A stretch of 64,000 nucleotides of DNA from a virus. Numbering within the stretch: position 1 is the stretch's first letter; each line of letters starts with the position of its first letter. Below, in pieces: positions 3,203 to 62,811 of this stretch. The notes under the pieces were generated by a model that was not told the origin of the DNA, did not search any database, and saw only the letters and a program-made list of their open reading frames with translations. The DNA lies in IMG/VR virus record IMGVR_UViG_3300030117_004272, positions 1 to 64,000 of that record; one strand, written 5' to 3'. The position numbers and the translations under genes were made by a program.

Positions 3203-4969
3203 TTACAAAGGATTGTTAGCAAGAATACCTGTAAGCCTCTTCATTGATTTGTGTGGTCTTGGCTTTCCTGATGGAGAAGCCGAAGGAGGATCGACCGCTA
3301 CTAAACCGTGTCTTTGACGAGCAACATCTAAACATAAGAAAGCTGCGTCCGCTAAGTCAGGGCTTTTGCCAAACCTAGATTTAAATTCTACTTTAGATTC
3401 CATCTTCATCCTAAGACTCGACCCTTTGATCATGTCATATTTTCTCCCTGTTATTTCTTGAGCTAGATCTGACGATATACCGAACAGTTGTTTAGTCCTT
3501 ATTAATTCCTTTCCAACAAACCAAAGTTCGGTTACCCTATTAGTATACAATTCATGCGCTAATTTTTTACTATTAGCACTGACTTTTTTATCCGTAGCCT
3601 TCCCTCCAAATGACACCCGAAGAATATCATCACTCCACTCCCCTGCCAGCAAGTCACATAAAGGAGCTCCAGCTCCTGTCGAGTCTACTGCCAGATCAAG
3701 AGGAAGAACCCCCCGTTTCTCGCACTCCCGACGAACCTGCTGAACAACCTGATAACTCCGCGGGGTACTCTTGTTGGTGGCATCGTCATTAATTTGGACT
3801 GCTTCTCCTAGTTCGCATACATATTGGCCTGACGTATCATAGCCAACCTTGCCGAATACTAACATGCATCGGTCACCTGAATTAGTGAACGCGGGGTCAA
3901 ATCCACATATATTTACAGGGCTACCTTTCCATTGTACCTGCCTCATGGACCCTGATCTCGCTAGTTCTGCTTCAGTATAAACACCTTCTGCTTCATCGCT
4001 ATCGAAGAAAACAGCACGTACCATCCGCATATAACCTCTACTATTAGGGCCTAATAAAGCCTTATCTTCATTTAGTTTTTCAGTTGTTGGTAGCCAAGGG
4101 TATAGTACTTCGTCAGCTAGAACATTAGGAGATCTCTCTGCATCGAACCTAATATAAGTACCACCCCACTTTGTTTCCCATGTGTCAGCAGAGTTGGTAT
4201 CTACTGAATCCCATCCACCTTTAGGCTCTGAAAAAACCCCAAAGGCATCGAACCGAGACGATGGGTTACTAAGAGCGACCAGAGAAAAAGAAGGGTTCTT
4301 AGATAAGTTTGATAGCGAAGCTTGCAATATACTTTCACTTAACTCAGAAAGCTCATCACCAATCAGTATAACTTTCTTTTGTTTAATACCGATGAGTTTA
4401 CCTATAGCATCTTTAGTTCTACTTCTTTCTGACGCTATCAAAGATAGTCCCGCTTTCTCTACAAGATTACCTGATGGTGTAACGTAACAAGCGTTACCTA
4501 TACTGTCTCTAATTCTTATCGGTGCTAGACCTTCAAGAGGTAACAGCAAACTGATCACTGATCCCCAAATCCTTTTCCTTGCTTCACGAAGCGTGGTTGA
4601 TGTTAAAAGAACCAGAGTATCTTGAGGTTGAGCTAACCAACTAAGGACTCCCCATGCAGCTAGTGTATGTGATTTACCTGAAGAAGCTGCTCCTCCTATA
4701 GCAACATACTTATTTTCAATAACAGCTCTGATCATTTCCTCTGCCCACGGATGTCTAATCATCAGTGGTTCAGCAACTAAATCAGGGTTATTAAAGAGCT
4801 CATCACACAACCTCCAGAAATAATATTCCCTAGCGTCATGATCTGTGTGGTGATGAAACCCATACAATAAACCTGTTAAAGTGTTTGTAGGAGGTAATAT
4901 AAAACCACCAACATCCATTTTTTGTTTGCTGTTTATCCGTGGTTCAAATTTAAAGTTCTTCTTAGTCAC
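3203..4969 (-). CDS. terL: Terminase large subunit (copy A)
   Basis: Walker A GGAASSGKSH, Walker B VILIGDE, coupling motif LSNP, RNase H-like nuclease GFDPAF...AVDSTG...SPDLADA. Confidence 0.92.
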   Translation of the reverse strand: MTKKNFKFEPRINSKQKMDVGGFILPPTNTLTGLLYGFHHHTDHDAREYYFWRLCDELFNNPDLVAEPLMIRHPWAEEMIRAVIENKYVAIGGAASSGKSHTLAAWGVLSWLAQPQDTLVLLTSTTLREARKRIWGSVISLLLPLEGLAPIRIRDSIGNACYVTPSGNLVEKAGLSLIASERSRTKDAIGKLIGIKQKKVILIGDELSELSESILQASLSNLSKNPSFSLVALSNPSSRFDAFGVFSEPKGGWDSVDTNSADTWETKWGGTYIRFDAERSPNVLADEVLYPWLPTTEKLNEDKALLGPNSRGYMRMVRAVFFDSDEAEGVYTEAELARSGSMRQVQWKGSPVNICGFDPAFTNSGDRCMLVFGKVGYDTSGQYVCELGEAVQINDDATNKSTPRSYQVVQQVRRECEKRGVLPLDLAVDSTGAGAPLCDLLAGEWSDDILRVSFGGKATDKKVSANSKKLAHELYTNRVTELWFVGKELIRTKQLFGISSDLAQEITGRKYDMIKGSSLRMKMESKVEFKSRFGKSPDLADAAFLCLDVARQRHGLVAVDPPSASPSGKPRPHKSMKRLTGILANNPL

Positions 4970-4996
4970 ACTTGAAATCTAGTAGTTATAAAGGTA

Positions 4997-5587
4997 ATGT
5001 TAATTACTTTGTCAAAAAAGTCTAAAAAAGATATTTTACTAGAACGAGCTCTTGAAATGATAAGTGCGGGATATAAGCACGTAAATATATGTAAAGAGTT
5101 GGATATACACCCGTCTACGCTTAGGCGGTGGTTACGTAAAGAGGGGATCAAAGCTAAAGAAGAACCTAAAGAACCAAAGAAACTCGATGTTGTTCAAGAC
5201 GTTTTAGATAAAGAGCTAGAAAAGAAAACTGATGATGCAATAAAGATTGCTAAACATGACGCAAGGAAAGCTGAAGACGAAGCTATGATGGAAATAGCTG
5301 AATCTCAAAGTAGCCCTGCTGAGAAGTACCAATCTTACATAGCTGCTGCGGGTATTAAGCTACTAAGAGATTCTGTAAAAAATCTAAGAGGACCTAAGAC
5401 AGTTCGCGAACTATCAGAACTAGATCAGTTGATAAGAAGGAACTTAGGTTTAAATGCAAAGAATGCAGGAGGAGCAGGTAAAGTACAAATAGACATCAGC
5501 ATTTTACATAACACCAAAGCCGATAGGGGTAATGGGTCAATAAAAATAAAAGACGAAGATATAATCGATGCCGAAGAAGCCGAATGA
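4997..5587 (+). CDS. HTH protein, probable terminase small subunit
   Basis: N-terminal HTH (ICKELDIHPSTLRRW) followed by a helical oligomerisation-like region; divergent from and adjacent to terL. Confidence 0.6.
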   Translation: MLITLSKKSKKDILLERALEMISAGYKHVNICKELDIHPSTLRRWLRKEGIKAKEEPKEPKKLDVVQDVLDKELEKKTDDAIKIAKHDARKAEDEAMMEIAESQSSPAEKYQSYIAAAGIKLLRDSVKNLRGPKTVRELSELDQLIRRNLGLNAKNAGGAGKVQIDISILHNTKADRGNGSIKIKDEDIIDAEEAE

Positions 5588-5831
5588 ATTTGAGACCGAA
5601 GAAGATGCGGAATCTGTTTTGTTATTGTATGCAGGACTAGAGGACGCTTTCATTGGTACTGTAGAGCAGTATGGCAGACCTCCTATAGCATGTTATAGTA
5701 AGACTATAACACTTGAGCTTTTGCAAAAGAACTATGAGTTAACGGAGAAACAAGCCATTGAAAAGTTTGAGTTTGAATATTTACAAAACAATTTTGAAGA
5801 AGCAACCCCATGTTGGCTGGACGACATATAA
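5568..5831 (+). CDS. Conserved phage hypothetical protein (paralog of 14021..14302)
   Basis: GLEDAFIG...PPIACYS versus DLDEAFVG...PPRAVYS. Confidence 0.65.
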   Translation: MPKKPNEFETEEDAESVLLLYAGLEDAFIGTVEQYGRPPIACYSKTITLELLQKNYELTEKQAIEKFEFEYLQNNFEEATPCWLDDI

Positions 5832-6076
5832 AACCAAGACCTCTTTTTCCTAATAAAAAAGTTGTTTCAGATCCTTGGATTGTTAAAAGAGAGAACATAC
5901 CTCCCTCCGACTTTACGTTTTGTTGTGATTTATTAGCAGGAGAATATTATTTAGTTATACCCGCAACAGCAAGAGAAGTTGGTTTCCTCCAGCTACTACA
6001 GAAAAACATAGATTGTTTTTTACCTATGGAAGGAGACGGTCTTCTAATTACTAAAAGGTGCTTAGATGGATATTGA
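5810..6076 (+). CDS. Hypothetical protein
   Basis: 88-aa ORF filling the operon gap; start codon uncertain. Confidence 0.5.
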   Translation: MLAGRHIKPRPLFPNKKVVSDPWIVKRENIPPSDFTFCCDLLAGEYYLVIPATAREVGFLQLLQKNIDCFLPMEGDGLLITKRCLDGY

Positions 6077-6590
6077 TGAAGAAGACGTAATCGTTGGAGT
6101 GGATAACGGGCTCAATGGAGGGCTGGTAGGTATATCTCGTTATACAGGAGGGGTGATTGCAAAAACTGTCATGCCTACTTTAGTTAGGGGTAAAAAGAAA
6201 GAAGTGGATATTTACAAAGTATATCAATGGGTGCTCAGTTTAGATTCTCGATTTATATTTGCAGTCGAAGAACCTTTACACCACGCTAAATCTTCTCAAG
6301 CTGTTAGGTCTATGGGTATTTCTTTTGGTAAACTATTAGGGTTAGCTGAAACTAAACAGTGGAATCTTAGACGAGTAAAAGTACACAACTGGCAACATTC
6401 AATGTTAGGTCATTTAAGAGCTCCTTATAATACAAAGGAAGCAGCTTTAACAGTAGCTAATAACTTAGCTCCTGATGAGTGTTGGTTAAAAAATAAACGA
6501 TGTTCTAAAGCACATGACGGTATGGTAGATGCTTTTTTAATAGCTCAATACATACGAAAAGGGTATAAAATATTAGACGGTCGTATTTAA
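6066..6590 (+). CDS. RuvC-like Holliday junction resolvase
   Basis: IVGVDNGLNGG (first acidic residue), AVEEP, HDGMVDAFLIA: the phage RuvC pattern. Confidence 0.8.
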   Translation: MDIDEEDVIVGVDNGLNGGLVGISRYTGGVIAKTVMPTLVRGKKKEVDIYKVYQWVLSLDSRFIFAVEEPLHHAKSSQAVRSMGISFGKLLGLAETKQWNLRRVKVHNWQHSMLGHLRAPYNTKEAALTVANNLAPDECWLKNKRCSKAHDGMVDAFLIAQYIRKGYKILDGRI

Positions 6591-6644
6591 GTTTAATTTT
6601 TTCTAGACATAATTACCTAAAAGGATTATTAAAAGATCCTCGCT

Positions 6645-7940
6645 ATGAAAACTTTGTTCCCCAAACAAGAAGAGGCTTGTTCTTTTTTTGTAGATAAACA
6701 GTCTCAACAAATTAATACGATTGATACCAGTGAAGTTGGTACAGGTAAGACTGTTGTAGCCGCTCACTTAGCTAAAAGACTTAGTGTACCTATTGCTGTT
6801 ATTTGCCCTAAGTCAGTTATACCTTCGTGGGAAAGAGAGCTAAAAGAAGTGGGGATAACTCCACTATTCGTTTATAACTATGAAGCTATTCGTAGAGGTA
6901 AACCTCCTTACTTACGTAAAAAAGGTAAGAAGATAATGACATGGAACATGCCTCCTAACACATTAGTTCTTATTGACGAAATACATAAATGCAAAGGAGC
7001 GTTCACACAAAATGCGCAACTTGTTATTAGCTTAGTTCAACAAGGTTTTTCAGTTCATGGGATGTCTGCTACATCCTGTGAAGACCCAACTGAAATGAGA
7101 GCTTTAGGTTATATGTTGGGTTTACATAACTTAAACAAAACAGAAGGAGTAAAATTTAGTTGGTATAGTTGGATGAAGAAGAACGGCTGTGTGCAAGACC
7201 AATGGAAACAATGGAGGTTATCTAAGAAAGCTTCTCTACAAAGTATTAAAGAAAAAATCTATGGAGTTGTTGGCAGCAAACTAACAGTACAAGATTTTCC
7301 TGACAGTTTTAAAAACAACAGAGTGTTTGTTGAATATACAGAGTTTGCGGAAAAAGAATCTATTCAAGCTATCTACGATGAGTTTGAGATAACGCCTGAT
7401 GTAGTAGAGAACTACATAGATGGGACAATCAATAGCGACGATAGTGAAATAATCTTAGTAAAAATACTACGAGCCCGTCAGTTAACTGAGCTGTGTAAAA
7501 TACCTGACCTCGTAAACATGGCTAAAGATTTAAAGGATCAAGGGAACTCTGTAGTTATATTCGTCAACTTCAAAGACACGGTAGACCTACTAGCTAAAAA
7601 ACTTTCGTGCAAAACAATACAAGGAGGTCAGTCTGTGCAAGAAAGACAATCTAATGTAGATAGATTTCAAGAAGACAAAGACCACGTTCTTGTAGTTAAC
7701 ATAGCTGCGGGAGGCACTGGACTTTCTTTGCACGATACTTTAGGCAAAAGACCACGAGTTAGTTTGATATGTCCATCATATTCTGCTAAAGAATATGCTC
7801 AGACATTAGGACGTATCCATAGAAACGGGGCGAAGTCAGATGCCGTACAAAAAGTTTTAATATCCGAAGGCTCTATTGAGGAGCATGTGATAAAAGCAGT
7901 AAACAGAAAATTAGATAATTTAAAAGAACTACATGGATAA
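6645..7940 (+). CDS. Superfamily 2 (SNF2/Res-like) DNA helicase
   Basis: GTGKT, DEIH, SAT, GGTGLSL and QTLGRIHR motifs. Confidence 0.9.
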   Translation: MKTLFPKQEEACSFFVDKQSQQINTIDTSEVGTGKTVVAAHLAKRLSVPIAVICPKSVIPSWERELKEVGITPLFVYNYEAIRRGKPPYLRKKGKKIMTWNMPPNTLVLIDEIHKCKGAFTQNAQLVISLVQQGFSVHGMSATSCEDPTEMRALGYMLGLHNLNKTEGVKFSWYSWMKKNGCVQDQWKQWRLSKKASLQSIKEKIYGVVGSKLTVQDFPDSFKNNRVFVEYTEFAEKESIQAIYDEFEITPDVVENYIDGTINSDDSEIILVKILRARQLTELCKIPDLVNMAKDLKDQGNSVVIFVNFKDTVDLLAKKLSCKTIQGGQSVQERQSNVDRFQEDKDHVLVVNIAAGGTGLSLHDTLGKRPRVSLICPSYSAKEYAQTLGRIHRNGAKSDAVQKVLISEGSIEEHVIKAVNRKLDNLKELHG

Positions 7941-9051
7941 TACACCAGACCACGGAAGTAGGGGACACGCGGAGTTCTCCCCCTCAAGTTTAAAATACGT
8001 AGCAGGATGTGCAGGATACGAAGGTAGGTCAGGTACAAATGCCGCAGCGGAAAAAGGAACTCGAATACACGAAGCTTTAGAAGTTAGAGATCCCTCTGCA
8101 TTGCATGATGAAGAAGAGGTTGAGATATATGACATGATTGTGGCTGATGAGAAAGCTTTCAACGAAAGTTTTTTTGGTAACACTCCTTATGATGAACTCA
8201 ACGAGATTCAAGTTCAAGTTGATCTACAAGGAACCGAGACATGGGGAACCTGTGATAGGTTTTTAGTTGCAGGAGACAAAGCTGTTATGGCCGATTATAA
8301 AACAGGGATATCTAAAATAGATTCTCCTAAAGATAATTGGCAAGCGAAGGCATACACGCTTGGAGCTTTTCAAGCTTTTCCTAAAGTGAACGAGATAGAC
8401 TTTGTCTTTTATATACCTGTACGCTCTGAAGTTTTACACGACAAATTTACAAGAGCTGATGTTCCTTTATTAACAAAAGAACTTAGTGAAGTAATTCAAA
8501 GAGGTGAGATGGTTAGGCCAAAATGGAAAGGTGGAGTACCTGACCATGATGAGTTAACTCCAACAGTTAACTGTAGGTTTTGTAAACACGAAGATCATTG
8601 TCCTGCTTTAGGAGGGCTCGCTTTAGAAGTTGCTTCGAAAGTTGCGGGAGAGCCATTACCAAACAAAGAAGATTTTGATTCTGATGATCCTGAAGTTTTA
8701 GAAAAGTTATGGAGCGTTGCTAAGGTTGTATCAAATTGGGCTACAAGAATAAAAGCTAAAGCAGTAGAGCAAGCTAAAGAAGGTAAAGAGTTCCCAACTT
8801 TAAAACTTAAAAACATGGGAGCTACTAAAAAGTGTACTGACAATATAAGTATGTTAGAGATTGCAGAAACTTATGGAGTTACTGCTGAAGATTTATTAAG
8901 TGTATCTTCTTTACCAATAAAAAAGATAGCAGATCTTGTAGGTAAAAAATCCGACAAAGGAACTAAAAAAGAAAATTCAGATAATTTCCTTGCAGATCTT
9001 GAAGAAGCGGATATTATCAAAACTTCCGAGACGCGATTCACGCTCTCATAA
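7933..9051 (+). CDS. Cas4-like PD-(D/E)xK exonuclease (DUF2800-like)
   Basis: HAEFSPSS...C, GTRIHEALE, GTCD...DYKTG, Q..AY, CRFC...CP. Confidence 0.85.
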   Translation: MDNTPDHGSRGHAEFSPSSLKYVAGCAGYEGRSGTNAAAEKGTRIHEALEVRDPSALHDEEEVEIYDMIVADEKAFNESFFGNTPYDELNEIQVQVDLQGTETWGTCDRFLVAGDKAVMADYKTGISKIDSPKDNWQAKAYTLGAFQAFPKVNEIDFVFYIPVRSEVLHDKFTRADVPLLTKELSEVIQRGEMVRPKWKGGVPDHDELTPTVNCRFCKHEDHCPALGGLALEVASKVAGEPLPNKEDFDSDDPEVLEKLWSVAKVVSNWATRIKAKAVEQAKEGKEFPTLKLKNMGATKKCTDNISMLEIAETYGVTAEDLLSVSSLPIKKIADLVGKKSDKGTKKENSDNFLADLEEADIIKTSETRFTLS

Positions 9052-50708: not shown

Positions 50709-53700
50709 CTACTCTACAGGAATGTAACGTCCGTAAGTTTCGAGTTGGTTATTAAAGGTACGCAATCTTTCAATATGAGTATCCCCTTTGACTGCCATGT
50801 TACGGATGAACGGAGTCTGCAAAGCGGGACGCTCCATCAAACCATTTAGGAGTAAAGCGACTCGACGTTTACCATACCCACGCTCTATTGCTTGAGAGTA
50901 TATCTGCTCATCAGTAAGACCTAACTTCTTGAATCCTCTAAATGCTCTAATTAAATGTTCATTAATACGTCTACGTCTTTCAATCTCCGTATCAGCCATA
51001 CCTCTTACAGCATCTTCTGATATCGAGTCATCTGTATACATACGGTTTTTAAGTGCTGCTGCTCTACGATATTCACCTGCTCTTTCTGACAGGAACCGAT
51101 CAAGCTGTTGTTCAGGTACTATGTCATATGGTCTAAGGGGTAAGAACTCTTTAGCTAATGCCCCTAAAGGAGTCATGATAAAATCAGATACGTCTGGATC
51201 TCCCTCCATCAATTTAACAAACCCGTCTTTATATACTTTCTCAAGGGTTCTTGGGGCATAAGCCTCTGAAAAAATAAACTGAAACTTTTTAGAGAAGGCT
51301 TCCCATGCAGTGTCATTAACCTCTGTAATAGGTCTACCATTCTCTGGATCTCTATTATTTAATGCACTGGTTACAGCGCCTGCCAGTATTTGTTGGTCGA
51401 GATACTGGTCGGCAACCATCGCTTTAAAGAAAGCGGCTCCCGCTTCTGCTGGACTACCCCTCATTAACTCATCAAAGGAACGTAGGAATGGATCGACCAT
51501 CATGGCGTATGGGTTAAGATAAGTTAAATCTAATGATTTTAATTGACCTCCTTTAGTATAGTAGAAGAATGAGTTGCTTCTTAAATACTCAGGCATCGAA
51601 TCTCTAAGAGCTTCTTCCTCTTCGTCCCCTATACCAGTGAGGGCATTCACAACAACTTGCGATATTGCGGAGAACCCTACTAACACGGTAGTGAATCCAA
51701 TCATTCTATTCTTACCTCGTTTTCTAATAACTGGATTAGTATCCGCCATTTCTTTCCTCGCTAAGAGAACTGTGTTTAGCATAATCCTTGGAACCTCTAG
51801 TTTGAATCGGATGAACGGAGCGAACATTACCCCGAACCATGTACCCTGTAACTTCTGAACAAACGGTGGGGCTTGATCATAGCTTTGTGCAGTTTTCTTT
51901 ACTTTATCTGCAGCCATCTGCATAAGTTCTTCATCGCTCAAATCTCCGTAATTAATCTGGTTCTCTGCTGTTGAAGCAACGTGTTTAGATCTAGCTTGTT
52001 GTAAAACCTCTAGCTCATTCATGAAGTAAGCAATCTTATAAAAACTATCTACAGTTTGTGATAGCTCTCTCAACCTACGAGCAAACCTACCTGCTCTTGT
52101 TTTACCTACTTTCTCTGATATGACACTAATATCTAATGCCTTCTTATCTCCACTTGTTTCACTTTCAAGACCAGCAAGATTATCCAACAATTCTTTCTGA
52201 AGCTGCGCTTCGCTTCGAGGGTTTGTTAAAAAGTCCTGTAAGAGTCTAGCTTCTATTTCATTGCCAATAACCCCTAACCCGATCATGGTTCTATGGAACG
52301 CACTCACTTCTTCTGGAGCCATTGATAAGTATTTCTTCCGCACAAACTCTTTCTCTAATGATTTACCCATCTTACCAAACCTCCAGAATCCTTGAGACGG
52401 CCCAAAGAAAACAATGTTTGAAGCTATGTTTCGAACATAGAATCCAATAGATCCTAATGTCTTAGCTCCTAAAGATAGACCCGTTAACTTAGCTCCTACT
52501 TCTGTAACAAACTGGTTTGCTTTGTCGGCTTCGGTCTGAGTTACTTTCGCTTTAGGATCAAGTATAGCAGAAACAGCTTGTTCCATTTCTGTAAGAACAT
52601 AATAAGTTTTCCCGTCTGCAAATGGCGCTGTATTAATAATACTAGTGTCTGCTCCAGCAGCTACTTTTAAAATACTATAACCTTCAGGTGCGGGTTTGTA
52701 TGTAGCTGCCTCTCCCTCAATCTGCACTTCGTCTAGTTCGGCCTCTATAATGAATGGCTGTCCTCCTGTTTTTTTGGTGTCCATACCAAACTTCTTGAGG
52801 TTGCTAATGAAGTTTATTTGAGAAGCAATTAAACCAAGATGTGAGAAAGTTTGCAGTAGTTCATTATATCCAGTCTCATCGTCAACTTGACCTAACAATT
52901 CCCGTAACTCTTGCGGAGGATTTTTACGCCTCTTCAAAGCTCCGATGTTTAAACTTACAATACTTTTTGCGTGGTCTTTAAGGTTATTAAATAAATTAGA
53001 TGCCGATCTATCACTTTTAATATGTAAATCGAGATAATCATTTACGAGCTTCGCTTTAAATTCAGCAACCGTAGGGAAGTTTTTAACTTCGTTACGCCAA
53101 TCTTTATTGAATGTCTTATATTGTTTATATAGAAAGTCACCTGCATTTTTCCGTACAGTGTCATATCTAGAGTCTGTTCTTATGTTATCCCTGTATTCTT
53201 TATCTGAAAAAAGTTTATACTCTCTGTGTAGATACAGTTGTAAGTTGTCATCAATAGCAATACCCATTTCACTATCCTCCCCTACGATGCCACGTATAAC
53301 TGTTGATAACTCATCAGTTAAGGCTCTTAACCCTAATGCTTTTTTACCATCTATTTCCCCACCAAGCAGATGCCTAACTAGTCTTGTTTTATTAGAGTCT
53401 TTTTCAGGAACCTTTTGTATTTTAGCTAACTCGCTTATAGCTTTTTTCTTCCTATCTCTAAATTCTTTTCTTCTCCCCTGCACATACTTAGCTCTTATCT
53501 CAGCAATCTTCGATTCGGATTTAACTCCTTTTATTAAATCAAGATATGCTTGTTCTGTTTCGGGAGATATGTTTTCACGGCTACCTACTAATGCTTGTAT
53601 CAAAGCAACAGGTGCTTTGCCGTCAAAATCTTCTTTGATTATTTTATCTAGCTGATTCTTAAAGTTAACAACATCAGCTTCGACAGCATCTTGTATTTGT

Positions 53701-56700
53701 CTTCTTTGTTCTACAAGTCTTCTTATTCTTGGGTCTAAGTCTCCCCTAAACTTATTTACTAAACTTCCAAATAAGCCATCTTTCTTTTTCCTATATTTAC
53801 CAGTCTCAAAGAAAGGTAAATCAAACAAAGGTGCATAACCCCCATAACCTAAACCACCTTCAGCCGTATCGAATGTACCGCTTTCAAGACCACCCTCTTG
53901 TGTGAATCGGACATCCCCTTCTCTACCGTAGTCAGGACGACTACCCCATACAGGTTTTTGTATATACACTCTGTTCCCTATATGGATAGCTTCACTACCA
54001 CCTACTACAGGTACAGGATCTAATGGGTTTGTTATATCTACAAACTCTGAACTTCTTAGAGGGTTTATTGCAACTTCAACCCAACGATTATCTCCTGTTT
54101 GTTTGGGGCCAACTTTACCACTAGCCCAGTTTTTACGGAAAGTATTTAACTGAGCAGGGGTGAACTCCATCAACTCACCTTCCGTAGAAGCCATAAGTCC
54201 TTTGTTACGTCCTACAGCTATTCTCGCTGCTGACTTTTCGTAACGTGTTATCTCTTTAAGTTTTATCCTCGCATAGTTTGTATAGGCTTTTGGCCCTTTC
54301 ATTTTTGGCCCTGCTATAGATACAGCATAAATAGGAGACCCTTTTTTTATAGACTCATTAAAAGTAGGTATGTCTAACCTAATGGATACAGGTTCACTCC
54401 CAATTAATTTATATGCTTGTGAATAAGGTACTGTCCCATGTGTAGAAGAACCATCTTTCGTTTTCTTATCGGCACTAATAAATTTAAGTATATTACTAAC
54501 GGTTGGGGTTTTTGGTACTTCAGTATTTTTATAAGGAAATACTCTGTTACGGATTTCATTATATGTTGCTTGATTTATCTTCTTTGATTTATCCTTTGAA
54601 AATAAACGGTTGGCAGCTACAGCGAGTATGCCTGACCTATCTTTATTTTTGTGGAATGCCGCCTTCTCAAATATCTCTTGCTCTGCAGGATCGTCAAGAT
54701 CACTAGCAGTTTTTACTTTCACAAGAGAAGCAACTTGCCTCTCGTTTACCTGTGATGTGATCGGAGGAACATCTTCTATATTATCATAAACACCTTCTAA
54801 AGAACCTGCTTGTGTTTCACGTACAGGTTGTATTCTTCCAGCAGCCGCACTGACTTGTTCCATCTTCTTCTGCCTATCTACTTTAAGATCGGCATCATAT
54901 TTAAATGGCCCAAGTTTCTCCTCCATGATTTCAGCAGGAGCTTCTTTTGAGTTACGTCTTTTCTTAAAGTTTTCATTTGGAGATACTACACTTTCACCAC
55001 GAATCTCTGAGGCTTTATCCAACATGATTTCATGTGAGCCTTTGTCACGACCAAGATCACTGACAAAACTTACAAAATTTAAGTCTGGATTCTGCTTCTT
55101 ATTTGTTTCAACAAAAGATGCAATAACATTACCTAACGCATTTATACTCTCTTTGTATGCTGCTACATCAAAAGGAAGTGCAAAAGTTTGCCCTATACCT
55201 CCATCTTCTACAGGTAACTTAACAGCTACTTTCCTTTCCATACGGCCTATCTGATCAACAGGGTTAACAGAGAACAAACCCGTGTTATCGTACGGAGGGA
55301 AGTCGTGCCAAAAATCTTGAGGCACAACTCCTAAAGGTTCTGAAATTGTTACGTAGTATACCCTACCATATTTTTTACTTACCCCACCATCATCAGTAAC
55401 CTTCCTCATTTTGTTATATGATTTATATGTTACATTTCCACGCATCGTAGGGCTCTGTATATCACACCAAGGTTTGGTCGCAGCACATGGTACGAATGCA
55501 ATAGTGTCATACCCATCAGGAATCTCAAAGTTCGACATATCTGAATGCCAGTTAGAAACTTTTTCGTTCTTAATTAATGCTGCTGTCATAGCAGGAGTAG
55601 GAGCGAACATGTCAAAAGTAAGTTCAGGAAGCTGAACGCCTTGAGATTTTCTAACTGCTTCTCTTGTTGAGTTGTATATACCTTTCCTTTTGTTAAAGAA
55701 ATATCTAATAAATCTAATAAGCTGGACAGGAGGTAGTACGAGTTTATTTGATGGTTTACCTGTTTTAAGTGATTTAAAAGGTTTACCTAATTGTTCAAAC
55801 TCTGCGTCGTTTATCTTTAATGTATCCTTTATGAAAGACTCAACTTGAGCTGCATCATCAAGATCTAAGTTATCGACAGCTTTATCTATATCGAAAGCTC
55901 CCGCTTGAGTTTCACGTACACCCGTTGGAGGTGAATACCCGAACTCGTAAATTGAATTACCTTCGGTGATCAACTCCCCTGCCTTAACTTCTTTGGTTAA
56001 TACTTTATATCCTTTGTCACCAAACATTCTAGCCCCATGCATTTCAGCATAGTCACGATCCGTAGACACCCAATCTCCTGCATTAATCCCTCCTTTTACA
56101 TTTGATGGTACACCTCTGTATACAGTTACTTTAGCATCAGGGTTTCCACGTACAGATACAATTTGATCATATACCTTCTGGTCATTAGTCGTATCGTATG
56201 AACCACCAGTACCATAAATTCTTAATCCATCAGATGAGTAAAAGTCAGATGGATAAATACTTTCATCCATAGCACTCATTGGTGACCCGTAACCTCTGTC
56301 GGGGGCTCTATGAGATCCTCTATAATCTAACTCACCCTCTTGTGTTTGCCGCACACCCATATCGATCTTCCTATTTGGATCACGATCAACGAACGGTTTA
56401 TCATCGAGATATGTTATAACTTTATTTATAGAGTTTTCTGGATCATCAATATCAAACTTGATCGCAGTGCTAACCTCAAAACCACCTTTCAGTCTTGTCA
56501 TCTCACCTGTCAGTCTGTGCATAGCTGCGGATATAACAGGGTTATCAGCATCTAACTCCCTTATAGCATTAAAACGATTTATATAAGAACGTAAGTAGCG
56601 TAATAATACTCGAACAAAACTTGGGTTGGTTTTGTAAAACTCTATCTCTTCTTCTGTAGTGTACCCTTTAAGTATTCTTTGTGCCTTCATACGTAAGTAC

Positions 56701-59700
56701 TCATCAACTATTACGTGTTGCATGCTACGCTGATCTACACTCAAAGCGTCAGGGCCAAGTTGACTACGAGCCGCTTGTCTTTTCTCATCTGTCTTATAGT
56801 ATGTGTCTATAATCTCGTTTACTTGAGTATCAGATAATACAGAAAATATAATGTCTATCTCAGCTTTACTTAAATTTCTCCACGCTGCGTGGTGTATAAC
56901 CTCATGAGATGCTTCGAATCGAGCGACGTGTTGTGCATTAGCTTTATTTAACCCCATCGTAAGTCTAGCAAGACCCCAAGGGTTTATAACAAGACGCATT
57001 CCTTCTTCAGTCTGCTCTGCTCTGTATGCTCCTAATCCTTTATTCTTTTCATTATAATCTACACGAGACTCCATACCCCAGAAATCGGCAACTTGTTGTG
57101 CGTCAGTTCTTGCGTCTAGATATCTTTGATAATGCTCATCGGCACTAAGCCCTTCCCCTAACTCAATGGATTTTTCTTTTGTCCCCCACACAGTGTCGAA
57201 AGTTTTTACAAGCTGCTCCTCTTGCTCTATTGCCCTCTGCCTTCCTTCTTCTAATTGTCTTTCGAGATCCTCATCTAAAACACCTTCTTGCGTTTCCCGC
57301 ACTTCTTCAGCTTTACTTTCTTTTAAAATAACATCTGCCTCTCCTTGAGTTATTAATTGTTTTTCTAATTTACTACGTACCTGTTCTTCTAGTTTTTGTA
57401 TATCGATGTTACTTTCTTGCCTATCTGATTTAATGACTTCTGATATCGCTTTTTTCTGAGCGGCTTCTGTCACCTCTTGTGGAGTAGGTATTACAATAGG
57501 CTCTCTTGATCTAGCAGCAGTACTTAACTGCCTTGATAACTGTTCTTTGTTTTCTTCGAAAAACGCTTGTGTTAAAGGAGAGCCTGTTTCTCCTAAGTTT
57601 TTTATAATGTTATCTATTGTTTCTTGTTGAAACCTTTCGTAACGGGCTCCTGTGCCTTTATCAAACATATTCTGAACACCTACAACACCCCCACCCATAG
57701 CACCCCCTAAAGAGGCAGCATGTAGTCCAACCATCATCCGATCTATCATTGGCGTGTTTTCATTAAGGGCAGCATCCGTAATGAATGTTTGTATAAATTC
57801 ATCAAGACCTTCTTCAGCAGCTTCACTAGCTGCAGGAATACCGAACTGCCTCAAAAAAGCAGAGTTTTTAGTAGCCGTCTTCATTTGTTTTTCAATAGTA
57901 CTACCTATTACTTCCCTTACTTTAGATGACCCATAACCTCTTATGTCTAAGTTTAGTATCTTTGACATCCCCGATGTCATACCTTTGTAAGTCATGCCTC
58001 TAAGAAATGCTTGTTCAAAACCTCCTAAACCTATACCCATAAACGCAGTCGTAAGTAGTCCTGTCACAGTACCCCCCATCATCGCATAACCCAAAGCAGC
58101 GTCGTGCTTTTCTTCGTGTGTTAAGGAGTCTGGTTGTGCTGCATATATAGTAGCGTAAGTATTACCCGCACTTCTATTTGCAGCCGTTAAAAATAAAGGC
58201 GGGAATGGTGCTGCTTTACGGAAAGTTTTATTAGCTATCGCTTTGTTATAAGCCTTGATTGCTTCTTGTACTCCTTCACTAACTACTTTATCGCCCGAAT
58301 CCTTTCCCTTCTTTCTAGCTGCAGCCTTCAATGCAATATCTTTTGCTGTATCACCGAACTGTCTACCCGTAGCAGCCTTAGTTAAATTTTTAACAAGTGC
58401 TTTAGCTGTTTGTTTAGCTCCAGCTTTAGCTCCAGCATATAAAACACCACCAGTACCTAAAGTTGTTGCAGACAACAAAGCTGTTGCAGAGACATCCACA
58501 ACCATTGGTGCAACCACGTTTGAGAGATCCATACCCCAACCAAACTCGTCACCAAAAATTGCAGCGACTTCTCGTCTACGTTGTCTATCCATTTGGTTAT
58601 CGACCAAATACTTTGTAGCCCCTTCGCTTTTAAAAATTACAGCACCTAACGAAGCAAATAATCCTATTACCGCATCAGGCACAGTTGCTGCTATATCTCC
58701 TAATCTGTTTTTTATAGAACTGTAATTACGCTTATCAGCTAAGAAAGTATCCAATATGTCTACATCGGGAGTTCCGCTAGCCCTTCCCGCTTGTTTTGCA
58801 GCCATCCAATTATCACTTGTCGCTGCTGTATCGGCCAGAAACTTATCGTACTGCTCATAAGTTAACTGCCTGTACAATTTACGCTGATTTCTGAGCGATG
58901 TAATTTGATCCTCTGACAATCTATCATCGTTCTTGATCGCCTTCTCGAACCTCTCTCTTTGTTGCATAAGGTTCGGGTGTGCCAGCACATGGCCACTCCC
59001 TAATATGCGGATGTTCTTAGAATCATCTTCGTCGTAGAATTTAAATTCTCCTTTTTCATTTACCTCGTTCGCTGCCAATAGTTCAACAGCATCTCTGATC
59101 TCTTTATCAGAGTATCTTTCAAGAGCAGCTCCTTCACCAAATCCATTCTTACGTGCATACTCTGACGACAATCCTTTACGGAAATCTGCAACAACATCTA
59201 AAATATCTTGCTCCTGATCTAAATCAGAATCCTCATCCTTCGCTTTGATAAGCTCACGCATCGTATCGAGTGCGTCCTGTGGTATGCTATCAACTTCATC
59301 TTCTGATCCTAAGATTGCATTAAGTTCAGTTAAGAGCTGCGCTTGCCTTATGTTTTCAAATACACTAGCATCGGACACTCCCTTTTTTAAACCAGACATA
59401 ACACGATATGCATCTGAATAGTTCAATGCTCCTAGTCGAACTGCATCGTCCAATGACTTACCTCTATCAGTTATGTCAGCACCACCAATAATTTTATCTA
59501 TACCTTTAGCGTCTTTTACTCTAGCAAAAGGCAGAATCCCTGAATCAACTAGTAGCATTTTTGCACTGTTAAGTTGCTTATCAAGCTCCTCTTGATTCCC
59601 GCTTTCACTTTGTATGTTACTAAGATAAGTAGACCCTGCTTGCTCACCATATGCCATACGTATTAAGTTAGCTTGAGTCTGTGCATCAGCTTGAGGTTTG

Positions 59701-60008
59701 AGCGTATCTAAAAAATCCTCTGATTCAACTTGTTCGGGGGTTACTAATTGATTGTTAAGTAAACTGCCTACTAACCCTTGTGTGATTGATGATTCTACTT
59801 CGTCATCAAGCTCACCTGTACGGAAGAAATGTCCTCTTTGATAATCAGCATAGCCTTGAGCACTGAGCAATGGATCATTGATATTTGACCCTGAAGAGGC
59901 TGACCACTGACTGAATGATTGTAGTGGTGCGACGTTGAAGTTTAAGTCAAGGTCATTAGGCACGGGGGTTTTCTCCCCCAACGATAATGTTGGATATAGG
60001 TCTGACAC
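50709..60008 (-). CDS. Giant polyvalent internal virion protein (copy B): zincin + ART-like + ArcS/DUF5591-like + unknown modules
   Basis: 3099 aa. Hydrophobic Gly/Ala-rich segments in the N-terminal third; HEVIHH; VYRGVP...WVSTD...EFGY; PCAATKPW...SEPLGVVP; five VRxTQxG separators. Confidence 0.8.
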   Translation of the reverse strand: MSDLYPTLSLGEKTPVPNDLDLNFNVAPLQSFSQWSASSGSNINDPLLSAQGYADYQRGHFFRTGELDDEVESSITQGLVGSLLNNQLVTPEQVESEDFLDTLKPQADAQTQANLIRMAYGEQAGSTYLSNIQSESGNQEELDKQLNSAKMLLVDSGILPFARVKDAKGIDKIIGGADITDRGKSLDDAVRLGALNYSDAYRVMSGLKKGVSDASVFENIRQAQLLTELNAILGSEDEVDSIPQDALDTMRELIKAKDEDSDLDQEQDILDVVADFRKGLSSEYARKNGFGEGAALERYSDKEIRDAVELLAANEVNEKGEFKFYDEDDSKNIRILGSGHVLAHPNLMQQRERFEKAIKNDDRLSEDQITSLRNQRKLYRQLTYEQYDKFLADTAATSDNWMAAKQAGRASGTPDVDILDTFLADKRNYSSIKNRLGDIAATVPDAVIGLFASLGAVIFKSEGATKYLVDNQMDRQRRREVAAIFGDEFGWGMDLSNVVAPMVVDVSATALLSATTLGTGGVLYAGAKAGAKQTAKALVKNLTKAATGRQFGDTAKDIALKAAARKKGKDSGDKVVSEGVQEAIKAYNKAIANKTFRKAAPFPPLFLTAANRSAGNTYATIYAAQPDSLTHEEKHDAALGYAMMGGTVTGLLTTAFMGIGLGGFEQAFLRGMTYKGMTSGMSKILNLDIRGYGSSKVREVIGSTIEKQMKTATKNSAFLRQFGIPAASEAAEEGLDEFIQTFITDAALNENTPMIDRMMVGLHAASLGGAMGGGVVGVQNMFDKGTGARYERFQQETIDNIIKNLGETGSPLTQAFFEENKEQLSRQLSTAARSREPIVIPTPQEVTEAAQKKAISEVIKSDRQESNIDIQKLEEQVRSKLEKQLITQGEADVILKESKAEEVRETQEGVLDEDLERQLEEGRQRAIEQEEQLVKTFDTVWGTKEKSIELGEGLSADEHYQRYLDARTDAQQVADFWGMESRVDYNEKNKGLGAYRAEQTEEGMRLVINPWGLARLTMGLNKANAQHVARFEASHEVIHHAAWRNLSKAEIDIIFSVLSDTQVNEIIDTYYKTDEKRQAARSQLGPDALSVDQRSMQHVIVDEYLRMKAQRILKGYTTEEEIEFYKTNPSFVRVLLRYLRSYINRFNAIRELDADNPVISAAMHRLTGEMTRLKGGFEVSTAIKFDIDDPENSINKVITYLDDKPFVDRDPNRKIDMGVRQTQEGELDYRGSHRAPDRGYGSPMSAMDESIYPSDFYSSDGLRIYGTGGSYDTTNDQKVYDQIVSVRGNPDAKVTVYRGVPSNVKGGINAGDWVSTDRDYAEMHGARMFGDKGYKVLTKEVKAGELITEGNSIYEFGYSPPTGVRETQAGAFDIDKAVDNLDLDDAAQVESFIKDTLKINDAEFEQLGKPFKSLKTGKPSNKLVLPPVQLIRFIRYFFNKRKGIYNSTREAVRKSQGVQLPELTFDMFAPTPAMTAALIKNEKVSNWHSDMSNFEIPDGYDTIAFVPCAATKPWCDIQSPTMRGNVTYKSYNKMRKVTDDGGVSKKYGRVYYVTISEPLGVVPQDFWHDFPPYDNTGLFSVNPVDQIGRMERKVAVKLPVEDGGIGQTFALPFDVAAYKESINALGNVIASFVETNKKQNPDLNFVSFVSDLGRDKGSHEIMLDKASEIRGESVVSPNENFKKRRNSKEAPAEIMEEKLGPFKYDADLKVDRQKKMEQVSAAAGRIQPVRETQAGSLEGVYDNIEDVPPITSQVNERQVASLVKVKTASDLDDPAEQEIFEKAAFHKNKDRSGILAVAANRLFSKDKSKKINQATYNEIRNRVFPYKNTEVPKTPTVSNILKFISADKKTKDGSSTHGTVPYSQAYKLIGSEPVSIRLDIPTFNESIKKGSPIYAVSIAGPKMKGPKAYTNYARIKLKEITRYEKSAARIAVGRNKGLMASTEGELMEFTPAQLNTFRKNWASGKVGPKQTGDNRWVEVAINPLRSSEFVDITNPLDPVPVVGGSEAIHIGNRVYIQKPVWGSRPDYGREGDVRFTQEGGLESGTFDTAEGGLGYGGYAPLFDLPFFETGKYRKKKDGLFGSLVNKFRGDLDPRIRRLVEQRRQIQDAVEADVVNFKNQLDKIIKEDFDGKAPVALIQALVGSRENISPETEQAYLDLIKGVKSESKIAEIRAKYVQGRRKEFRDRKKKAISELAKIQKVPEKDSNKTRLVRHLLGGEIDGKKALGLRALTDELSTVIRGIVGEDSEMGIAIDDNLQLYLHREYKLFSDKEYRDNIRTDSRYDTVRKNAGDFLYKQYKTFNKDWRNEVKNFPTVAEFKAKLVNDYLDLHIKSDRSASNLFNNLKDHAKSIVSLNIGALKRRKNPPQELRELLGQVDDETGYNELLQTFSHLGLIASQINFISNLKKFGMDTKKTGGQPFIIEAELDEVQIEGEAATYKPAPEGYSILKVAAGADTSIINTAPFADGKTYYVLTEMEQAVSAILDPKAKVTQTEADKANQFVTEVGAKLTGLSLGAKTLGSIGFYVRNIASNIVFFGPSQGFWRFGKMGKSLEKEFVRKKYLSMAPEEVSAFHRTMIGLGVIGNEIEARLLQDFLTNPRSEAQLQKELLDNLAGLESETSGDKKALDISVISEKVGKTRAGRFARRLRELSQTVDSFYKIAYFMNELEVLQQARSKHVASTAENQINYGDLSDEELMQMAADKVKKTAQSYDQAPPFVQKLQGTWFGVMFAPFIRFKLEVPRIMLNTVLLARKEMADTNPVIRKRGKNRMIGFTTVLVGFSAISQVVVNALTGIGDEEEEALRDSMPEYLRSNSFFYYTKGGQLKSLDLTYLNPYAMMVDPFLRSFDELMRGSPAEAGAAFFKAMVADQYLDQQILAGAVTSALNNRDPENGRPITEVNDTAWEAFSKKFQFIFSEAYAPRTLEKVYKDGFVKLMEGDPDVSDFIMTPLGALAKEFLPLRPYDIVPEQQLDRFLSERAGEYRRAAALKNRMYTDDSISEDAVRGMADTEIERRRRINEHLIRAFRGFKKLGLTDEQIYSQAIERGYGKRRVALLLNGLMERPALQTPFIRNMAVKGDTHIERLRTFNNQLETYGRYIPVE

Positions 60009-60046: not shown

Positions 60047-61156
60047 TTATTCGCTCCAATTCGAAGCTGCAGTTTCTGCAGCAGGGTTAGGAGCTTCTAA
60101 TTCTTGTCCAAGTCTCATGGAAAGCATTCTCTTTTGCCTTGCTAGAATTCCAAAGGCTTCGTTGAAAAGAGTTGTTGCGTCTTTTGCATCCAACGCTTCT
60201 CGTTCTTCTTCCGATAACGCTCCTTTCAACAACTCAATTAAATTAATTATAATTTCTTTATCTGTTTTCCCATCCAGTCCTATACCTTTATTAGCAAGAA
60301 GCTCTCTAACTAATGGGTCTGATGACCCATCTCCTTCTAATCTAAATAACATACCCTCAATATCTTCGAGTTCTTTTAACTGCTCTGTTCTTGTAATTTT
60401 ATTTTGCTCTAGTTTTTGTATAGATTTAGTAATATCTCTATATACAGGATTTAACATTCCTTGGAAAGGAGTAGTGTCTCCTCCTGATTTCGCTAAATCC
60501 ATTACCTGACTCCGAAGTTTATCTTGATCCGCTTTACTTGTTTTTAAAGAATCTCCTGCTCTTGTAAATAATGTGCTTATGCCAGTATCACTCATTACTG
60601 AAGAAACTGTAGGAGTCATCATTGTTGATACTAACGCTTTTTGTTTTTGTGAGTCTGTTGCTTTTGAGTCTAAAATCTGTTGGATTCTAGAAGCTACTTG
60701 TGGCCGTATCTGAGCTTTCAGTTGCTCATCCCTATTCTTTCTCTGAGCCATTTGTAAATCAACAAATGCCTTTCTGTCTTTAGAAATACCTCCTAATTGA
60801 GTCTCAAACTGTTTAGCGAACATGGCCTGTTCTGAAGCAGGTAACTTAGACGCTGCTATGTCAGAGAAATAAGCACCACGCAAGTCAGCCATATCTGCTG
60901 TTGGGTTGAATGATGGCCCTGCCTGACTCACCGAAGCAATACGCTGTTGTGCCTTTCTTTGTAATGCCCTACTATCAGGAGTCATTATAGTTGGCTCATT
61001 AAGACGTACCTTCTCCCCTTCCAAAGCCATTTGTTGCGCTGCTGCTGCGTAGCCTTTTCTACGTAGTCTACGTGCAGCTCTTTTATACTTAGAAGATGGG
61101 CGGTCTAAAGAATATCTTTGACCCAACTCATAGGATGGCATTGTAGTAAACTGCAT
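60047..61156 (-). CDS. Putative internal virion protein (copy B)
   Basis: Homolog of 929..2086. Confidence 0.6.
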   Translation of the reverse strand: MQFTTMPSYELGQRYSLDRPSSKYKRAARRLRRKGYAAAAQQMALEGEKVRLNEPTIMTPDSRALQRKAQQRIASVSQAGPSFNPTADMADLRGAYFSDIAASKLPASEQAMFAKQFETQLGGISKDRKAFVDLQMAQRKNRDEQLKAQIRPQVASRIQQILDSKATDSQKQKALVSTMMTPTVSSVMSDTGISTLFTRAGDSLKTSKADQDKLRSQVMDLAKSGGDTTPFQGMLNPVYRDITKSIQKLEQNKITRTEQLKELEDIEGMLFRLEGDGSSDPLVRELLANKGIGLDGKTDKEIIINLIELLKGALSEEEREALDAKDATTLFNEAFGILARQKRMLSMRLGQELEAPNPAAETAASNWSE

Positions 61157-61165
61157 ATGTGTAAA

Positions 61166-61684
61166 TTATTTATTTCTTCTTCGTTCTCTTTCTAACTTCT
61201 TTTGCTGCCTTTTAAGTGCGTTCTGAAGCATATTTTTTCTAGAAGCCTCACTTGCAGGTCTCGCTCTCATATCTCCAATAGCCCTATCTGCTGCTGCAGA
61301 TGTTATGTCTTTACCAACAGGGCGGCCAAACTCAGTTTTAGCTCTGTTAAAAAACTCTGCTTTTTCTGCGTCAGATTTTACAGCTTGAGCTGATATTGGG
61401 ATTGAAGATTCATAACCGCCCATTGACCTACTCGCTGCTGCAGATGTTATGTCTTTACCAACAGGACGGCCAAAGTCAGTCTTTGCTCTATTAAAAAACT
61501 CTGCTTTTTCTGCATCAGATTTCACAGCTTGAGCAGACACAGGAGTTGATGAACGGAACTCGATGTCATCATCCATAAAAGGGTTTTTAGGTTCTGAAAG
61601 AACACCGAACTTCTTCTTTATAGAACCCCCTCCAAAGAGTTTATTCTGGTTGTCTCGCCTAAAATAACTGTTTCTCTCTGACAT
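61166..61684 (-). CDS. Hypothetical protein with an internal 35-aa duplication
   Basis: SAQAVKSDAEKAEFFNRAKT[D/E]FGRPVGKDITSAAA occurs twice. Confidence 0.65.
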   Translation of the reverse strand: MSERNSYFRRDNQNKLFGGGSIKKKFGVLSEPKNPFMDDDIEFRSSTPVSAQAVKSDAEKAEFFNRAKTDFGRPVGKDITSAAASRSMGGYESSIPISAQAVKSDAEKAEFFNRAKTEFGRPVGKDITSAAADRAIGDMRARPASEASRKNMLQNALKRQQKKLERERRRNK

Positions 61685-61689
61685 AGTTA

Positions 61690-62811
61690 TTAATATTTGC
61701 CAAACGCTTTCTCTTCTTTTTCTTTTACCATTCTTAAAACTTCCGCTCTTTCCGTAGGAGATAAGTCTTTTAAGAATGGCGACTCACCAAAATCAGGTTC
61801 TTGAACTTTAAACTGCTTGTCCAGCATTTCTCTCTTCTGTCCTTCACGCTGTGCAGCCATTTGCTGTTGTCCTGCAGTTGTCCTTTTTTCTACCTCTAAA
61901 GGATCTTCTCCTGTATCTTCCATGAACTGCTTTCGTTCTTGTTGAAATCCACCAAACCTGTCTCTAAATCTTCGTAATGCTTCTCTTTTAGGTTCTTGTA
62001 TGTTAAACTGCCCTTGGCGAATTCGTGCTTGCACTTCACTAGGAGTACGTAAACGGAAGCTACCATCCTTCTCTGTCTTCCCTAAAGCTGTCGGAGCAAG
62101 TATCTGCTGGTCTTTAAGAAACTGTTCGTACCCTCCTCTGTACCCATATGGGCCGTCGGTTCCTGCAAGAGCTGCTTGTTTATCTCTTTCTTTTTTTAGA
62201 AGATCTGCTTTACCCGTAGGCGGTTTATCTTGTCTTTTGTCTGAGTCTGTCCCATCTCCTTTAGACTCCCCAAAACCCATTTCTTCATTCCCCCAATCGG
62301 TTACTTCAGGCAACTCTTCTTCTTTAACTTTTTCTCCTTGAGGATCAAACCCTTGGAAATAAGGGGCGTTAATATCGAGCTCTTGTGCTTTCAACTTACT
62401 TTCCTCGTCCGTGTCTCCTAAAATTGCATCCGTCGCAAAACCAAATTTTTTAAGGTATGAGGCTTCAAATTTAGGGTCTAAGTGCCTCCCAATGTTTTTA
62501 ATGAGAGTTTCTCTAAGCCCTATGTTTGGGTTCCCTCCAAGAGGCGTATACTTACGGTCAACGTCCGATACAAATAAATTTTTAACTTGTGGGTCTGTAG
62601 ATAATTTTTTTACAAAAGCAGCGAAGTCATCTACTAAATCTAAATTAGGGTCGTAGATGTTCATAAAGTTAAAAGCCCCTAAAAAACCTGTTTCAGGTTT
62701 ATCGAGAGCTCTATCCATTAACTCTGCATAGTAAGATGTGAGTTGCTCCCATCTTTCCCTACTCATTCCTATTGAATCTAACTGCTCGTCTGATATATCA
62801 CTTTTCGCCAT
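61690..62811 (-). CDS. Hypothetical protein, probable internal virion protein
   Basis: Positional equivalent of 2086..3063. Confidence 0.55.
   Translation of the reverse strand: MAKSDISDEQLDSIGMSRERWEQLTSYYAELMDRALDKPETGFLGAFNFMNIYDPNLDLVDDFAAFVKKLSTDPQVKNLFVSDVDRKYTPLGGNPNIGLRETLIKNIGRHLDPKFEASYLKKFGFATDAILGDTDEESKLKAQELDINAPYFQGFDPQGEKVKEEELPEVTDWGNEEMGFGESKGDGTDSDKRQDKPPTGKADLLKKERDKQAALAGTDGPYGYRGGYEQFLKDQQILAPTALGKTEKDGSFRLRTPSEVQARIRQGQFNIQEPKREALRRFRDRFGGFQQERKQFMEDTGEDPLEVEKRTTAGQQQMAAQREGQKREMLDKQFKVQEPDFGESPFLKDLSPTERAEVLRMVKEKEEKAFGKY

Follow-up and report, generated by a model that had tools for sequence, protein, structure and literature searches.

A DUF5591/archaeosine synthase core-like domain as an optional cassette of a giant polyvalent-type phage protein

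The first 64,000 nucleotides of the IMG/VR virus record IMGVR_UViG_3300030117_004272, a virus contig of 76,396 bp, form the stretch of DNA analysed here, hereafter called the window. This stretch, from an uncultured marine phage, contains a giant gene whose product of 3,099 amino acids (aa) consists of six units, split by five short linkers of the form V-R-x-T-Q-[EA]-G. The fourth of them, Unit 4, shows a genuine, albeit divergent, kinship to the catalytic core of archaeosine synthase (ArcS), the Rossmann-like C1 domain, and is an optional, linker-bounded cargo cassette, as can be seen from its boundaries and from its presence or absence in closely related proteins. The DUF5591 fold and the cassette status of Unit 4 are assigned with high confidence. 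The best overall explanation of the data, a catalytically competent DUF5591 unit carried as optional cargo by a giant protein of the polyvalent type, is held to be about evenly poised between right and wrong.

To our knowledge, all ArcS-core enzymes characterised so far finish a 7-deazaguanine that a partner transglycosylase has placed in tRNA or DNA. The novelty of the present protein is that it is a partner-less and cargo-borne variant of this known kind of enzyme. It belongs to a clade which keeps the catalytic Cys/Lys signature without any detectable partner or precursor pathway and which has come to serve, in about 58-kb marine phages, as an exchangeable cargo within a giant protein made of several enzymes.

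Kinship of Unit 4 with the archaeosine synthase core

A previous sequence-only reading of the window had proposed, from two short peptides, that an ArcS/DUF5591-like domain is embedded in a large virion protein. Both peptides are present at the positions claimed for them, in a single open reading frame (ORF) of 3,099 aa (the first, IAFVPCAATKPW, corresponds to aa 1503-1514, positions 55467-55502), the range given for the domain is that of Unit 4, and its assignment to DUF5591 is borne out by the concordant results of sequence-profile, profile-profile, language-model and two fold-level searches. DUF5591 (PF17884) is the sole Pfam family matching Unit 4 (E 0.0014); it is matched by 43 of the 45 family members (E<0.1, best E 3.4e-17), and 22 of the 31 viral relatives exceed the Pfam cut-off. 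Upon comparison of the family profile with the sequences of the PDB, the top match was AF0587 (2q07), a DUF5591+PUA protein with which both signature motifs align, and the fold of Unit 4 resembles that of this solved DUF5591 protein. The top match among the predicted viral structures of BFVD was the DUF5591 protein of phage nt-1 (E 7.9e-4, probability 1.0), and hhalign aligned the family profile with the sequence of nt-1 ArcS2 at 89% probability (E 2.1e-6). In the ESM Atlas, where the placement was made with a stored homologue of Unit 4, this homologue falls in an all-viral DUF5591 cluster of 125 members, the neighbours of which are archaeal ArcS clusters. A single-sequence phmmer search of the PDB returned picornavirus VP1 noise only. 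The links to DUF6884 and YaaA that had been suggested along with the domain found no support: DUF6884 gave no hmmscan match and reached rank 30 in BFVD at E 0.55, and neither DUF6884 nor DpdC/YaaA matched anything in the 76-kb record at E<=1.

Unit 4 is nevertheless not an orthologue of ArcS, because it lacks the S-x2-H extension described below, because no TGT, TGT_C2 or PUA domain matches anywhere in the 3,099-aa protein, and because it scores 14.3 bits with the NCBIfam ArcS equivalog NF040592, far below the cut-off of 440.

Residue conservation was read from an alignment of 45 sequences with a mean column identity of 13%. The columns C142, K146, Y162, P192, Y207, D208 and L259 are invariant, corresponding to C1508, K1512, Y1528, P1558, Y1573, D1574 and L1625 of the giant protein, and H293 is nearly invariant. 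The first motif, VPCAATKPW (aa 1506-1514), aligns through its PC segment with PCTARKPY of AF0587; its C and K are invariant, whereas its P, P and W are at least 90% conserved. The second motif fits the pattern [IT]-S-x-P-L-x-V-P...Y-D, with TISEPLGVVPQDFWHDFPPYD aligning with IISSPL-VVPREFELLYPAVNYD of AF0587 and with VISNGGVIPQQFWHSYPYLNYD of nt-1 ArcS2.

The cysteine of the PC motif of ArcS is assumed to be the nucleophile of the enzyme. The giant protein possesses two cysteines only, C1508 and, seven residues further on, C1515. Among the 14 closest giant homologues, nine are devoid of the cassette and contain no cysteine at all, while four possess the cassette and have their cysteines only in the motif. 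Since the other ORFs of the phage contain 0.75% Cys, the remaining 2,734 residues should hold about 20 cysteines, and the probability of finding none is about 1e-9. C1508, being kept despite such a strong avoidance of cysteine, is best read as a catalytic nucleophile, and Unit 4, as judged from its conserved residues, is probably an active enzyme. The full motif of ArcS reads PC-x3-KPY-x2-S-x2-H (PMC10516641, PMC5699537). In Unit 4, the residues that follow KPW are C-D-I-Q-S-P, so that both the Ser at +3 and the His at +6 are missing, and the S-x2-H columns are not conserved within the clade.

Linkers, cassettes and organization of the giant protein

The V-R-x-T-Q-[EA]-G linker occurs five times (at about aa 904, 1220, 1365, 1730 and 2034) and, within the 76-kb record, is confined to the giant ORF. 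The synonymous codons differ among the five copies, so the linker is conserved at the peptide level, as would be expected of a recognition site rather than of a recombination sequence. When the 14 closest giant proteins are cut into units at R-x-[TS]-Q-[AESD]-G, a common plan emerges, consisting of an N-terminal region (about 910 aa), a unit with an HExxH motif (about 316 aa), zero to four cargo units of at least six types, and a C-terminal region (about 1,070 aa).

The DUF5591 unit is one of these interchangeable cargoes. It is present in 4 of the 14 closest giants and in only 4 of the 120 best-scoring ones. In one homologue (P0100), precisely the DUF5591 unit is missing between two linkers, and in another (P0108) the order of the units differs. 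A protein of 3,364 aa that is 96-97% identical to the giant protein (L002:5903-15997) contains an extra unit of about 265 aa, inserted exactly at the linker that follows the DUF5591 unit. This extra unit occupies aa 1737-1998 and probably accounts for the precomputed PF18760 match of the protein. In a more distant lineage, represented by L004 and L005 (4,264 aa), the DUF5591 unit is flanked by another short linker, PRLQSR[FY]GA; in L005 (L005:1433-14227) this linker occurs at aa 2129, 2845 and 3188, and a DUF7178 domain (PF23802) occupies aa 2194-2385. A third giant protein (L044, 2,243 aa) also has the unit. In a tree of the domain, the five embedded copies of the lineage of the window form a single clade among solo viral genes, with a Shimodaira-Hasegawa-like approximate likelihood ratio test (SH-aLRT) support of 100, and the L044 copy stands apart from it. 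Owing to the explicit linker and to the known variants with and without the cassette, this family offers a clean natural system to study how giant phage proteins get cut into working parts, and the cysteine of the Cys/Lys motif provides a sharp target at the bench among 3,099 residues.

Table 1. Features of the giant ORF, with positions in the window.
Feature	Residues (aa)	Position	Strand	Remarks
Giant ORF, polyvalent-type multi-unit protein	3,099 aa	50709-60008	minus	GTG start
N-terminal conserved region	1-907	57288-60008	minus	Hydrophobic segments aa 441-459, 498-516
Linker VRETQEG	903-909	57282-57302	minus	
Unit 2, candidate zincin metallopeptidase	908-1223	56340-57287	minus	HEVIH aa 1035-1039 (56892-56906)
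Linker VRQTQEG	1219-1225	56334-56354	minus	
Unit 3	1224-1368	55905-56339	minus	Domain also C-terminal in mycobacteriophage ParB-like proteins
Linker VRETQAG	1364-1370	55899-55919	minus	Upstream edge of DUF5591 cassette
Unit 4, DUF5591/ArcS-C1-like cassette	1369-1733	54810-55904	minus	
Stretch matched by Pfam DUF5591	1485-1571	55296-55556	minus	Profile positions 2-69 of 150
Motif PCAATKPW	1507-1514	55467-55490	minus	Cys1508 at 55485-55487
Second motif VTISEPLGVVPQDFWHDFPPYD	1553-1574	55287-55352	minus	P1558, Y1573, D1574 invariant
Linker VRETQAG	1729-1735	54804-54824	minus	Downstream edge of DUF5591 cassette
Unit 5, cargo cassette (type E)	1734-2037	53898-54809	minus	Without family assignment
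Linker VRFTQEG	2033-2039	53892-53912	minus	
C-terminal conserved region	2038-3099	50712-53897	minus	Hydrophobic segment aa 2769-2793

The giant protein thus combines a DUF5591 unit, a phrog_2579 domain and a unit with an HExxH motif. Unit 2 is a candidate peptidase, on account of its HEVIH motif, the near-invariance of the Glu of HExxH and of two later Glu residues, and the fitting topology predicted by AlphaFold2 (a helix, three strands and the HExxH helix). Unit 3 matches phrog_2579, 'ParB C-terminal domain' (E 3e-30), and tblastn located it in 179 phage records, for the most part of cluster-E-like mycobacteriophages, where it makes up the last 130 aa or so of ParB-like proteins. At least 155 giant proteins of 1.8-5.3 thousand aa, encoded on contigs of roughly 50-65 kb, share the C-terminal 1,062 aa of the giant protein, while the N-terminal region yielded no relative among the GenBank phages by tblastn. 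The sole GenBank phage resembling the C-terminal region is the Pseudoalteromonas phage vB_Pun_Y3 (L034, OR779980.1 24147-37521), with 30% identity over aa 617-864 of that region. It encodes a protein of more than 3,400 aa annotated as 'DdrB-like ParB', followed by a 1,027-aa 'ADP-ribosyltransferase', and the two together resemble a polyvalent array of this type that has been split. P0056, despite its 13 matched stretches, is a repetitive protein without relationship to the others. P0004 (853 aa) displays by eye a ParB-like DGHRR motif at its end, which Pfam did not confirm.

Proposed delivery and substrate, and competing explanations

Polyvalent proteins are giant phage proteins which gather unrelated enzymes and a zincin peptidase; according to the model put forward for them, they are packaged, enter the cell at invasion and are then cleaved into working parts (PMC5512222). 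With the members of this group that Iyer et al. (2017) described from phages and conjugative elements, such as P1 DdrB/DarB or the N4 vRNAP-type proteins, the present protein shares its size, its unrelated enzyme domains, its HExxH unit and the proposed logic of delivery at invasion followed by proteolytic release. It differs from them by an explicit conserved linker of 7-10 residues and by cassettes that are present or absent. As anticipated in the sequence-only reading, this is an unusual context for an ArcS-type domain: the ArcS/DUF5591 unit is not among the domains discussed in the polyvalent-protein survey, which mentions no ArcS or queuine domain (PMC5512222). Like the polyvalent proteins, the giant gene has packaging or late genes in its vicinity, being preceded on its own strand by TerL and three small genes. 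PF18760, PF23802 and PF25735 are present in homologues of the giant protein. The first of these, which we take to be ART-PolyVal, occurs in close homologues, and such ART-type units are another trait in common with the polyvalent proteins.

In its lack of cysteine outside of the cassette, the giant protein resembles the putative structural genes and departs from the replication genes. Together with the gene position and the hydrophobic segments of the N- and C-terminal regions, this composition speaks indirectly for packaging. The putative late and structural genes of the record (minus strand, 14304-37275 and 60047-62811) contain 0-0.5% Cys, as against 1.2-1.9% for the replication genes, and this split may help to tell virion from non-virion proteins in a phage that resists annotation. 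Directly upstream of the giant gene (60047-61156), a highly charged and helical-looking protein of 369 aa is encoded, which may be a scaffold or internal protein; it possesses a 32%-identical copy in a diverged repeat (929-2086) and 20 unnamed homologues, and belongs to no family.

A possible mode of action can be proposed from these elements. The giant protein would be packaged in the head, and its V-R-x-T-Q-[EA]-G linkers would serve as protease sites, cleaved either by the candidate peptidase, Unit 2, or by a protease of the head. Once released, Unit 4 (40 kDa) would work as an enzyme in the cell that has just been infected. If it resembles ArcS and ArcS2 in this respect, its Cys1508 would react with an electrophile on a base, the most likely target being the nitrile of 7-cyano-7-deazaguanine (preQ0), whether in DNA, in RNA or in a nucleotide, and the group bound to Cys1508 would subsequently be passed to an amine or to water. 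Since no genes for making or inserting a 7-deazaguanine were detected in the phage, the substrate is probably supplied by the host and would be, e.g., a dPreQ0 mark of the Dpd type or a queuosine precursor. ArcS accepts the bare preQ0 5'-nucleotide (PMC11298593), and DpdC, a member of the DUF328/YaaA family which hydrolyses dPreQ0 to dADG in bacterial Dpd restriction-modification, acts on preQ0-DNA without its transglycosylase (PMC10164549). Taken together, these two precedents make it chemically plausible, by analogy, that a lone core could work on host-made preQ0; DpdC resembles the proposed enzyme in that its target, too, is the nitrile of a preQ0 that is part of the DNA beforehand, and in that it works without a transglycosylase.

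The claim of the sequence-only reading that folE, queD, queE, queC and dpdA are missing could be extended to the whole 76-kb record for the first four genes, since QueC, QueD, FolE and radical SAM (queE) (PF06508, PF01242, PF01227 and PF04055, respectively) gave no match at E<=1. As to dpdA, the claim was tested only weakly: Pfam TGT (PF01702) matched nothing in the record or in 31 relatives, a negative of little weight because the same search misses the validated DpdA2 of nt-1. In nt-1, the gene order around ArcS2 is queD-arcS-folE-x-queC. The family of gene x, phrog_10773, which is presumably DpdA2, was found in the nt-1 positive control and in none of 32 records, of which six are at least 90% complete; DpdA1, DpdA3 and DpdA4 were not searched. 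The window harbours no tRNA gene. QueD is present in 3 of the 31 relatives and QueC reaches its cut-off in none. One of the QueD/PTPS homologues lies 4.5 kb upstream of a solo DUF5591 gene in a jumbo-phage fragment (L015:1406-12844), in a same-strand block which also contains topoisomerase II subunits and a UvdE endonuclease.

Several points weigh against the interpretation of Unit 4 as a catalytically competent, virion-borne cargo. It scores 18.9 bits with DUF5591 against a Pfam gathering cut-off of 26, and aligns to the first half of the profile only. The absent S-x2-H extension implies that its chemistry or substrate may differ from that of ArcS. Fold searches with Unit 2 yielded no significant zincin match. 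The packaging, cleavage and injection of the giant protein are inferred from its architecture, gene position and composition, and no portal, capsid or protease can be named in this very divergent phage; these three, together with the three genes between TerL and the giant gene, received no name from the PHROG, Pfam and NCBIfam searches. The absence of DpdA is subject to the limits of the TGT and phrog_10773 searches given above, most of the related viral records are fragments, and no source of substrate was found for Unit 4. Delivery of Unit 4 with the virion is thus given an even chance, and its action on a 7-deazaguanine, suggested by analogy with its characterised relatives, can be put forward only tentatively.

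The alternative that holds up best keeps the fold and the cysteine nucleophile but not the connection with 7-deazaguanines: the chemistry would differ, or the substrate would be, e.g., some other modified base, a small molecule or a nucleotide. It would readily explain a clade devoid of S-x2-H with its own invariant Y162 and L259 and near-invariant H293, which aligns with no more than half of the DUF5591 profile, was in no case found together with a TGT (a weak test), and in a few relatives is fused to PAP2 (E 3e-10) or NUDIX-like (E 0.003) domains. However, both motifs of ArcS, AF0587 and ArcS2 are retained residue for residue, and all characterised members of the superfamily act on preQ0, which leaves this alternative doubtful.

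Unit 4 could also be an ordinary ArcS2 which finishes a 7-deazaguanine in the DNA of the phage itself, either in the head or earlier, in the cell that produces the phage, the base being inserted by an undetected phage DpdA or by a host DpdA together with a preQ0 supply; its location in the giant protein would then merely ensure co-packaging or co-expression. The nearest tested relative, ArcS2 of the Vibrio phage nt-1 (VPFG_00169), does exactly that, as it produces dG+ in DNA from dPreQ0 when co-expressed with DpdA2; together with STSV2_16 of a Sulfolobus virus, it represents the stand-alone viral DUF5591 proteins (PMC10516641). Phage ArcS2 and Unit 4 both consist of the C1 catalytic core alone, are both encoded by viruses, and align in their Cys-x3-[KR]-P-[YW] and IS..G.[VI]P..FW..P..YD motifs. 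In addition, phage DpdAs are often seen by HHpred only, Pfam TGT missed the DpdA2 of nt-1, host enzymes may complete partial phage deazaguanine systems (PMC7824862), and the QueD copies mentioned above, one of them close to a DUF5591 gene, point in the same direction. The two proteins differ in that ArcS2 is part of a precursor/DpdA cluster, whereas Unit 4 has no such cluster in the record and no nt-1-type DpdA in the record or in its 31 relatives, and is embedded in a 3,099-aa protein with an identity to ArcS2 too low for tblastn to connect them. The lack of the precursor genes and of S-x2-H also argues against an ordinary ArcS2, and the fact that Unit 4 is dispensable among near-identical phages would be odd for a genome-wide self-protection. 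This explanation is accordingly considered unlikely. The archaeal ArcS alpha (NF040592) and AF0587 also differ from Unit 4, which has no TGT-like N-domain, C2, PUA or S-x2-H; no RaSEA partner is available (no radical SAM), and the context is that of a bacterial virus rather than archaeal tRNA.

A bolder version of the virion-borne cargo, rated as quite unlikely, would make Unit 4 an injected, partner-less enzyme of the ArcS type that rewrites preQ0 marks or precursors of the host, for example the dPreQ0 self-marks of Dpd restriction-modification or the queuosine precursor pool, and hence the first virion-delivered effector directed against host 7-deazaguanine biology. If this were true, a deazaguanine-based defence could be blunted or host translation derailed, and phages would gain or lose the cassette, within a cargo array marked off by linkers, depending on the host. 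More generally, if Unit 4 is both delivered and active, the conflict over deazaguanines would extend from the self-protection of phages to an attack on, or a use of, the marks of the host.

A non-catalytic role as a base- or nucleic-acid-binding module (decoy, sensor or packaging aid) appears very improbable. Base binding had been one of the options of the sequence-only reading, the activity of Unit 4 is a prediction, and its isoelectric point of 7.8 is above those of the acidic neighbouring units; but Cys and Lys are strictly invariant in a family so poorly conserved otherwise, and a protein family that otherwise shuns cysteine tolerates it in this motif alone, which speaks for a chemical role. 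A chance resemblance of the motifs with no kinship to DUF5591, which could only invoke the sub-threshold Pfam score, is refuted by the agreement of the sequence, language-model and fold-level searches and has a practically negligible likelihood.

Relatives in other genomes and the viral record

As judged from sequence searches, the clade of Unit 4 is a small and almost wholly viral group within the DUF5591/ArcS-C1 superfamily. An exhaustive HMMER search of 1.84 billion protein cluster representatives retrieved only 66 relatives, mostly of about 300 aa. Relatives are encoded by 32 viral loci, most of them as solo genes of about 300 aa which usually lie on fragments; CheckV puts these at a few percent of genomes of very large size. 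Relatives are also encoded by four jumbo genomes that are near-complete and 317-453 kb long. Around the solo genes of the jumbo-phage fragments, conserved neighbours were not found beyond close relatives. No relative was detected by tblastn in the GenBank phages (50,697 records), with either Unit 4 or a solo homologue as a query. The 185,579 species genomes yielded no more than 7 loci (L035-L041), all on contigs of metagenome-assembled genomes binned as bacteria of the candidate phyla radiation (CPR), Bdellovibrionales, Undinarchaeales and others; these contigs are probably phage or prophage DNA in the bins.

The record itself holds about 1.28 genome lengths, the genomes of relatives being estimated at about 57-60 kb. 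Positions 3287-8000, which comprise TerL, early genes and a helicase, are repeated at 62968-67837 with 66-69% nucleotide identity, and the ORF at 1-894 (minus strand) corresponds to the N-terminus of a second giant protein, 38% identical to the first and cut by the start of the record. Although CheckV rates it as 100% complete, the record has the appearance of two related phages joined into a wrap-around chimera.

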